From: a virus
Taxonomy: Duplodnaviria; Heunggongvirae; Uroviricota; Caudoviricetes
Length of the DNA stretch: 64,000 nucleotides
Direction: 5' to 3' (one strand)
IMG/VR virus record: IMGVR_UViG_2740892449_000004
In this document: positions 53,173-55,520 of the stretch, one piece after another
How positions within the stretch are numbered: the first letter of the stretch is position 1
Layout: the number at the start of each line of letters is the position of its first letter
Made by a program: the position numbers and the translations under genes
The notes under the pieces: model-generated
Told to the model about the DNA's origin: nothing
The model's input: only the letters and a program-made list of their open reading frames with translations
Databases searched by the model: none

Positions 53173-54171
53173 TTATCCGTTACCGCGCGACGGTTTCTGC
53201 GTGATAAACGTCTCAAGCATCTTTTCCGCAATTGCCGACCAGGTGTGACACTGGACCTTTTCAGCATTTTTCACGCGATCAACGCAAGCAATAACCTCAT
53301 CCCAATCAATCCGCGACTTGATAACCATATGGTTCACCAAAGCCAAGCGATCTGGCGGAAGGCAATCGGGAGGCGTTAATACCAACGCCCCGCACATTGC
53401 CGCCTCAAGTACAGTTAATCCAAGGCTTTCGGGATGCGTAACGATAAACACGTCACTCTTACGCAATTCAGCTGCAAATTCGGTTGCTGGTACCGGCGTC
53501 CGTCTGTATGGGGTTACCGATATATTCCCCGGATCAATGGTAATCAATCCGTCATCGGTCAACGTTCTGGCCTCATACGGAACGGCCAGGCGCTGAAGGT
53601 TCATAAGGATACTTAAGGAGTGATCAAACCCACTAACATCAAATGCAGCGTGGTCTACAAAAATACGCAGAACATCGTCTGTTTTGGTTTCCAGATGGAA
53701 CAGTTCCTGATTCGCTGCCCATCCAACATGTTTGTTAAAGCGATTATGACGCTCTAACCGACCGGGATTATCCAGGTACCGCCAGGTATCATCGCGGACA
53801 GTAAAAGTAATATCGACTGGTGCCGAATCCAGCATAGAACCGTCATATACCTGGGCTACCCATCCAGAGAATCGGCGACACAGTTGCATGCCTATTTCCC
53901 TGGGTACCGTAGTAAAATACCTCAATCCTGGTGCCAAAATGGCCTTCGCAGAACATGCGGTCGCAGCAGTCAACACAGCTTCAACATAATCCTCGGGGCT
54001 TTCGACGCCAGGGGAATATGGACGATGGTATTGCAATGTTACCCCTGCCTCACTAAAGGCGCAGGCCAGGTTATAAGCCCACATTTCCGTATATGTTTTC
54101 ACATCACTGATGGCTTCAAATTTTCGCCCAATGATCAGGATGTTCATCGGCTTTTCCTCATTCCATTGCAT
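53173..54171 (-). CDS. Glycosyltransferase-like protein
   Basis: C-terminal motif FIVTHPESLGLTVLEAAMCGALVLT; start overlaps ban stop by 1 nt. Confidence 0.55.
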   Translation of the reverse strand: MQWNEEKPMNILIIGRKFEAISDVKTYTEMWAYNLACAFSEAGVTLQYHRPYSPGVESPEDYVEAVLTAATACSAKAILAPGLRYFTTVPREIGMQLCRRFSGWVAQVYDGSMLDSAPVDITFTVRDDTWRYLDNPGRLERHNRFNKHVGWAANQELFHLETKTDDVLRIFVDHAAFDVSGFDHSLSILMNLQRLAVPYEARTLTDDGLITIDPGNISVTPYRRTPVPATEFAAELRKSDVFIVTHPESLGLTVLEAAMCGALVLTPPDCLPPDRLALVNHMVIKSRIDWDEVIACVDRVKNAEKVQCHTWSAIAEKMLETFITQKPSRGNG

Positions 54172-55520
54172 TAATAATCCTCTTGCCAGTCAGCACCGGC
54201 ATAGTTATCAAACCGTGAGTATTGGCCGTTAAAAGCCAATCTCACCGTGCCAATTGGGCCATTTCGTTGCTTTCCGATAATTACCTCGCAATGCCCTTCA
54301 TTTCGCTATCCGGGTGATAAACTTCGTCGCGATACAGAAACATGATCAGGTCTGCGTCCTGCTCAATTGCTCCTGATTCACGTAAATCTGAATTTACCGG
54401 TCGTTTGTCCGCGCGCTGTTCAAGCGAGCGATTAAGTTGTGACAATGCCACCACCGGTACTTGTAATTCCTTCGCCAACGCTTTAAGTGATCGAGAAATC
54501 TCGGCAATTTCCAGCGTTCGGTTATCTTGCAGCTCGGGGACGCGCATAAGTTGCAGGTAGTCGATCATAATCATGCTCAAACCACCATTTTCTTTATAAA
54601 CACGACGAGCGCGGGAACGTAGCTCTGTCGGCGTCATGGCGCTTGAGTCATCAATAAAAATATTCTGCTTGTCCAACAGAATACCCATTGCGCCAGAAAC
54701 CCGCGCCCAATCATCGTCGTTAAGTTGCCCCGTTCTAATACGAGTCTGATCAACGCGTGCAAGAGAAGCCAGTGAGCGCATCATCAGCTGGTGGCTCGGC
54801 ATCTCAAGGCTAAAAACCAATACGGGCTTATCGTTACGGACTGCGGCATTTTCGACGAGATTCATCGCAAACGTGGTCTTCCCCATCGATGGGCGGGCGG
54901 CGACAATAATGAGATCGGACGGCTGAAGTCCTGCCGTCTTCTTATTGAGGTCGGTAAATCCGGTATCAAGCCCCGTTACACCATCATGCGGTCGCTGAAA
55001 CAACTCTTCTATGCGAGATACCGTTGCATCGAGAATGCTGGCGATATCTTTTGGACCACTACCGCTCTTTTGTCGTTTTTCAGCTATTTCAAAAACGCGG
55101 CGCTCGGCCATATCCAGCAATTCATTGCTGCCCCTGCCATCCTGCGCATATCCAGCTTCGGCTATTTCATTTGCGACGGAAATCATTTCACGAACAACCG
55201 CGCGTTCACGAACGATATCCGCATAAGCACAAATATTTGCCGCGCTGGGCGTGTTCTTTGACATCTCCGCAAGGTACGCAAAACCACCGGCGCGTTCTAA
55301 TTTACCGTTCTGTTCAAGTGCTTCAGCAAGTGTTATCAAATCAATCGGTTTGCCATGACTTAATAACCTCTCCATCTCACTGAAAATTTCACGATGAGCA
55401 CTGGTATAAAAATCATCAGCAACTATACGATCTGCAACTTCATCCAGCGGCAGTTATCAAGCATTAAGCCACCAAGTACAGCTTGTTCTGCACTAAGGGA
55501 ATTTGGCATGGATTCAAGAG
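54171..55520 (-). CDS. ban: Ban, DnaB-family replicative helicase, frame broken twice
   Basis: Track ORF 54281..55375 aligns with E. coli DnaB; N-terminal residues (MPNSLSAEQAVLGGLMLDN, start 55520) and C-terminal residues (IIGKQRNGPIGTVRL...) are in other frames. Confidence 0.8.

Follow-up and report, generated by a model that had tools for sequence, protein, structure and literature searches.

A frame-broken ban helicase gene in the assembly of a P1-like phage-plasmid, most likely an ordinary ban with two under-called bases

The window, a stretch of 64,000 nucleotides from the IMG/VR virus record IMGVR_UViG_2740892449_000004, represents a P1-like phage-plasmid (Punavirus). It carries ban, the gene of the P1 DnaB-analogue replicative helicase, on the minus strand at positions 54171–55533. 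As given, the gene is 1363 nt long and its frame is broken at two places; with both missing bases restored it measures 1365 nt and encodes 454 amino acids. It is most likely, with a probability of about 0.88, that the breaks do not exist in the DNA molecule and are two of at least 15 under-called G or C bases, falling in an otherwise ordinary ban. With the two bases restored, the product is an ordinary Ban, and the gene is one already known. The positions of the deletions, their common signature, the outcome of re-insertion and the differences between sibling assemblies were observed directly, and from them we infer a technical cause.

The three-frame translation of the minus strand, together with the list of open reading frames, revealed three frame segments in ban as given. 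Codons 1–30 (MSASPLESMPNSLSAEQAVLGGLMLDNCRW) run up to …LMLDNCRW and are followed by out-of-frame residues and a stop. Codons 31–416 lie in another frame (DEVADRIVADDFYT...DSEMKGIAR, then a stop), and the remaining frame holds codons 417–454 (EVIIGKQRNGPIGTVRLAFNGQYSRFDNYAGADWQEDY and a stop, that is, EVIIGKQRNGPIG…QEDY and the stop). This is the picture drawn in the earlier note, in which the N-terminal match to DnaB changed frame after LMLDN, and KGIA was followed by a stop with the C-terminus continuing in a different frame. A four-way alignment of the window, P1, JL22 and P7 placed the lesions, and exactly two single-nucleotide deletions account for the broken gene. Site 1, at 55444–55446 (minus strand), changes CGCTGGGATGAAG to CGCTGGATGAAG, or GGG to GG (CC on the plus strand), and shifts the frame after codon 30. 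Site 2, at 54288–54290 (minus strand), changes ATTGCCGAGGTAA to ATTGCGAGGTAA, or GCCG to GCG (CGC on the plus strand versus CGGC), and shifts the frame after codon 416, where KGIA is followed by R and the stop. The two breaks are therefore present as first described, with their estimated positions, about 55430 and 54285, replaced by the aligned ones. Of the extent first given to the gene, the end at 54171 stands, and the start moves from 55520 to the ATG annotated in P1, at 55533. Ban as given lacks a single uninterrupted frame of about 454 codons; re-insertion of the two bases yields one 454-codon frame with no stop codon inside.

The repaired product contains the N-terminal DnaB domain (PF00772) over profile positions 2–103 of 103 with 120.9 bits, and the DnaB_C domain (PF03796, the RecA-like ATPase with the Walker A motif GKT) over positions 1–255 of 255 with 360.6 bits. 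In the alignment to DnaB that had been suggested at the outset, residues 6–452 of the repaired protein align to residues 24–470 of E. coli DnaB with E = 1e-233. Judged by these sequence scores, the similarity to the DnaB family is not a chance resemblance, since both domains and the end-to-end match to E. coli DnaB return values of this size. Compared with Ban of the E. coli plasmid p64EVA-6, the closest plasmid allele, the repaired gene shows six synonymous changes and one non-synonymous change; compared with P1 ban there are 16 synonymous and three non-synonymous changes. Compared with the closest allele, ban shows no sign of relaxed selection: neither an excess of non-synonymous changes nor nonsense codons nor larger deletions were found.

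In ban as given, the DnaB domain is split by the first deletion, and an ORF of 364 aa retains only profile positions 47–103. DnaB_C stays in frame for positions 1–220 only, and the last 38 residues, including GKQRNG, fall in another frame. In DnaB structures, this C-terminal part includes the GKQRNG segment with the arginine finger. The product of ban as written would lose the start of the N-terminal domain and the C-terminal 38 residues and so would be inactive. By its family, the repaired Ban would be a DnaB-type hexameric helicase, and in this respect the protein adds nothing new. P1 ban can support growth of a dnaB(ts) host after derepression, and P1 does not need the gene in dnaB+ hosts, so that a true pseudogene of ban would be biologically conceivable.

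The 1.8 kb around ban share 98.7% identity with phage P1 and 99.4% with p64EVA-6, both of which annotate the matching region as ban/dnaB followed by dbn. The dbn gene (53173–54171, minus strand) is intact and encodes 332 aa, and its start codon forms the overlap TAATG with the restored stop of ban. This overlap with the corrected stop, TAA at 54171–54173, had been described in the earlier note and is exactly that of P1; the downstream gene, dbn, called glycosyltransferase-like there, shows weak similarity to glycosyltransferases. The exact Dbn protein was found in 377 blocks of public assemblies. Upstream of ban lies tRNA-Ile2 (anticodon CAT; 55820–55895, minus strand), identical to P1 trnI. 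Further upstream, the ban promoter region and its divalent C1 operator Oban (Op72ab) are found at 58707–58734 on the minus strand; the sequence matches P1 exactly, where no match is expected by chance. The ribosome-binding region and start of ban are likewise identical to P1, and the P1-type neighbourhood, with the C1 operator, the tRNA gene upstream and dbn joined by TAATG, was thus found with exact matches throughout. According to the P1 annotation and to established knowledge of the family, transcription starts at the ban promoter, which C1 represses, and passes the tRNA genes before it reaches ban and dbn. In this reading ban lies in the C1-repressed ban operon downstream of tRNA-Ile2 and is translationally coupled to dbn through the TAATG overlap.

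Parts of this region depart from P1. At 55923–56967 (minus strand), between tRNA-Ile2 and upl/plp, the P1 genes tciA-tciB-tciC are replaced by a module composed of a 78-aa ORF and a 275-aa SPFH/Band_7 protein with a lipoprotein-signal-like N-terminus. No Pfam family was found for the 78-aa ORF. The exact 275-aa protein occurs in 17,093 blocks of public assemblies, mostly beside an intact dnaB, and the look-up of this very common protein did not recover the sibling assemblies described below. The dmt methyltransferase gene (58725–60743, minus strand) encodes 672 aa, compared with 754 aa in P1, and differs in its middle segment. In other P1-like contigs the dmt position is occupied by genes of 672, 754, 862, 1013 and 1095 aa, the two longest (1013 and 1095 aa) giving Hint/LAGLIDADG (intein-like) Pfam hits.

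The deleted forms of ban were looked for in relatives of this plasmid. In collections of phage, plasmid and E. coli genomes, the region matched by the 1801-nt query spans 1803 nt in the best-ranked relatives, and their dnaB is annotated as intact. A gap-tolerant pattern for site 1 matched 90 IMG/VR contigs and one GTDB genome, and among the matches listed, 80 of 80 IMG/VR contigs (of the 90) and the GTDB genome carry the intact form of 33 nt. An exact search for the deleted forms of both sites gave no hits in IMG/VR and none in the JGI metagenome contigs, and the deleted form is not present in the single GTDB representative genome carrying this ban segment. The deletion forms are absent from all unrelated relatives examined in these three collections. 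Among 112 fetched loci that carry ban, 94 have an uninterrupted gene with one full-length match each; of the other 18, six have an internal break, and the remainder run off the end of the fetched stretch. One public locus has an insertion of about 1.3 kb in ban near codon 426, and three others have ban interrupted at other positions by a single frame change each. Look-ups of the exact 364-aa ban fragment and of a 1091-aa darB fragment of the window in public assemblies returned no record.

The two lesions of ban are not isolated. The whole window was aligned to P1 and p64EVA-6, and its accessory region to two further plasmids, and this census found 15 single-base deletions in 13 conserved genes, the frame of each gene being broken. 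All 15 removed a G or a C from runs of two to five bases, and 13 of the 15 lie in a G-C(n) context (GCC/GGC). Besides the two in ban (54288 and 55445), they include single C deletions in darA (4584, GCCC>GCC), darB (17982, GCCC>GCC), mat (24168, C5>C4), ref (24681, C4>C3) and pdcB (32347, GCC>GC, present also in the sibling NTIR). Single G deletions affect ddrB (5542, GGC>GC), c8 (25211, GGGC>GGC), hot (34383, GGC>GC, absent from NTIR), a conserved 171-aa ORF (38188, CCCGGC>CCCGC), ppp (45682, GGGC>GGC) and tail gene 25 (49769, GGC>GC). Tail gene 7 has lost two C bases 15 nt apart (50444, GCCC>GCC, and 50459, GCC>GC). No insertions were found among the lesions in these comparisons, and no deletions in A/T runs were seen, though A/T runs outnumber G/C runs in the window. 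The run statistics were computed on the first 14 sites only. If deletions fell in proportion to the counts of runs of at least two bases, the location of 14 out of 14 in G/C runs would have a probability of about 2e-5, and under the same null the presence of a G immediately 5′ of the C-run in at least 12 out of 14 would have a probability of about 3e-4.

Re-insertion of the missing bases opened frames of exactly the P1 length, counted in codons from stop to stop, in darA (644), ddrB (999), darB (2258), pdcB (350), ppp (231), gene 25 (405), gene 7 (243) and ban (463). In all broken genes, split tblastn matches became one full-length match at 93–99% identity. Among about 58 P1 homologues in the window, no nonsense substitution was found. 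Methylation by Dcm or Dam was considered as an error context and rejected, for on inspection the deletion sites fit neither CCWGG nor GATC.

Several other differences from P1 were noted in the course of the alignment. The accessory region at about 35200–41650, with small genes of the Ead/Ea22-like, DUF551, DUF4752 and ASCH types, replaces the P1 stretch that runs from the C-terminus of pmgT to upfO; pmgT itself has a homologue here, a 242-aa ORF that diverges after residue 232. The same accessory mosaic occurs in many E. coli P1-like plasmids. Two further stretches have no P1 counterpart. At 22252–23564, EcoPI res/mod is absent and a 379-aa ORF (22285–23424, minus strand) is found instead, and at 8348–9466 a 267-aa ORF (8382–9185, minus strand) takes the place of IS1/isaB. 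At the start of isaA (10385–10423, minus strand), codon 12 counted from the GTG annotated in P1 is TAA (CGCTAAAAAACG in the window, CGCAAACAAACG in P1), and a conserved ATG lies seven codons downstream of it; the stretch around the TAA is variable. This codon was rejected as a sign of decay, as it stands in a variable stretch upstream of the conserved internal ATG, and is read as natural variation or as an annotation matter: either this variant uses the internal start, or the P1 start was annotated too far upstream.

The window was also compared with sibling assemblies of the same plasmid. Two siblings were found through the exact Dbn protein of the window. NTIP01000015.1 (GCA_003592145.1) shows no mismatches to the window over 8,999 nt and differs from it only in carrying five bases that the window lacks, two in ban, two in gene 7 and one in gene 25; a 454-aa DnaB gene is called there, and Ban is intact. 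NTIO01000017.1 (GCA_003592125.1), also without mismatches, has three of these five window deletions, including site 1 of ban, lacks the other two and misses six further G/C bases of its own. The deletion at ban site 1 is common only to the window and NTIO, and NTIP has neither ban deletion. A third sibling, NTIR01000018.1 (GCA_003591925.1), differs from the window by two mismatches over 20.9 kb, shares three of the four window deletions located there and adds four others, some of them at GCC and GGC in pmgS. In the records of NTIO01000017.1 and NTIR01000018.1 many genes are split or uncalled, with the same G/C deletion signature as in the window. Another public assembly, GCA_041399765.1, has split genes all along the locus, its dnaB being called as 174 and 281 aa. 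A literature search on the sibling WGS accessions found nothing.

The truncated product of gene 25 is on record only in the Logan assembly of run SRR1685365. Contig 431 of this assembly (10,652 nt) corresponds to window positions 43636–54288 without mismatches; it is a k-mer assembly independent of the window, reproduces four of the window deletions and has one extra GCCC>GCC deletion. The deletions are thus present in at least one read set and were not made by one assembler, as the independent assembly reproduces four of them. Contig 431 ends exactly at 54288, which is ban deletion site 2, and this suggests that the reads are heterogeneous at that position. The presence of the deletions in reads fits a systematic platform error and equally fits real mutations. 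Across all sibling comparisons there are 19 indel differences and two substitutions; each sibling differs from the window by zero to two substitutions, but by one to eight G/C deletions. The deletions shared by the window, the Logan contig, NTIO and NTIP form a nested pattern, which is compatible with a tree.

Sequences that diverge naturally collect far more substitutions than indels, and slippage in nature occurs preferentially in long runs, whatever the base. The ratio of 19 to two is the reverse of the first expectation. Nearly all the differences are deletions, confined to G and C, to very short runs and to a common context, and for this reason we regard the pattern as a signature of under-calling: a sequencing or base-calling process would drop one base from short runs of G or C, especially in GCC/GGC contexts. 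Siblings have deletions at the same sites, and every assembly has further private deletions of this type, which also argues for a technical origin, and the affected genes otherwise appear fully conserved. Because such an error is systematic, reads from the same platform may seem to confirm the indels. It had been argued initially, from the TAATG overlap, that the intact frame is the real one. This is supported by the uninterrupted 1365-nt gene of the relatives, by the sibling NTIP01000015, which has both bases, and by the deletion signature extending over the window.

The principal competing explanation is real decay: the window would belong to a defective P1-like plasmid prophage that has lost ban and about 12 further genes to genuine −1 frameshifts, and the siblings would represent successive stages of this process. 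We consider this unlikely, though it has several observations on its side. The nested sharing of deletions among siblings is what such a history would leave and does not by itself exclude inheritance, the independent assembly from reads reproduces four deletions, ban is known to be dispensable when host DnaB is present, and other public P1-like contigs have ban interrupted elsewhere, in one case by the clear insertion of 1.3 kb. Against decay stands the nature of the lesions, with indels so far in excess of substitutions among the siblings and every deletion a G or C from a very short run in a common sequence context. The affected genes contain no A/T-run slippage, nonsense mutation or larger deletion and remain 93–100% identical to the P1 proteins, the substitutions in ban are six synonymous to one non-synonymous, and a load of about one frameshift per 4 kb would be unsustainable genome-wide. 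A narrower variant is an unusual mutational process limited to the plasmid, for example an error-prone polymerase acting during P1 replication. It would produce −1 frameshifts at GCC/GGC with almost no substitutions in the lineage of the window, NTIO, NTIR and SRR1685365, and the siblings would form a nested series of progressively inactivated prophages. We consider it very improbable.

Two readings that would leave a functional gene have been effectively excluded. Under programmed recoding, transcriptional slippage or a pair of ribosomal +1 frameshifts would allow the broken frame to yield Ban; the only point in its favour is that the two shifts have the same direction. The uninterrupted frames that relatives encode at both sites dismiss it, the same type of lesion occurs in 12 unrelated genes, and no slippery heptamer or long homopolymer lies at either of the ban sites. 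The 364-aa ORF, which begins with an internal ATG (55375) and stops at 54281, could alternatively be a functional truncated helicase, as it keeps the greater part of DnaB_C with its Walker A motif. Both domains are incomplete in it, which effectively excludes this reading too: the DnaB domain lacks its first 46 positions and the DnaB_C profile its last 35, and the missing C-terminal part includes the GKQRNG segment, which in DnaB structures holds the arginine finger. An identical product is not on record in public assemblies.

With systematic under-calling as the favoured explanation, the broken ban makes no case for P1-like plasmids losing their helicase, and its main value lies in quality control. 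None of the 13 broken genes of the window should be scored as a pseudogene. The signature of single-base G/C deletions, together with the sibling assemblies that share it, identifies a group of public assemblies in which indel errors are systematic; errors of this kind raise the number of apparent pseudogenes and split protein clusters. In the unlikely case that the deletions are real, they would indicate that a phage-plasmid is subject to a highly specific mutational process that produces frameshifts.

Among the closest known systems is Ban of phage P1. The repaired product has the same length of 454 aa as P1 Ban (YP_006543.1, P1_gp077) and differs from it by three residues, and the gene order is shared, with Oban, tRNA-Asn and tRNA-Thr, tRNA-Ile2, ban, dbn with its TAATG overlap, and the baseplate gene 5. 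Unlike P1, the window has, as given, a ban that is two bases short, with its frame in three pieces, and an SPFH/Band_7 lipoprotein module, common among P1-like plasmids, in place of tciABC upstream of tRNA-Ile. E. coli DnaB (PDB 6bbm and others) aligns end to end with the repaired Ban and shares both Pfam domains; Ban differs in lacking about 18 N-terminal residues of DnaB and in being encoded by a phage-plasmid, where its gene follows an exact copy of Oban, the C1 operator annotated in P1. Another close relative is the sibling NTIP01000015.1, which has no substitutions relative to the window from gene 25 to the SPFH gene, but retains the five G/C bases absent from the window and, with them, an intact Ban of 454 aa.
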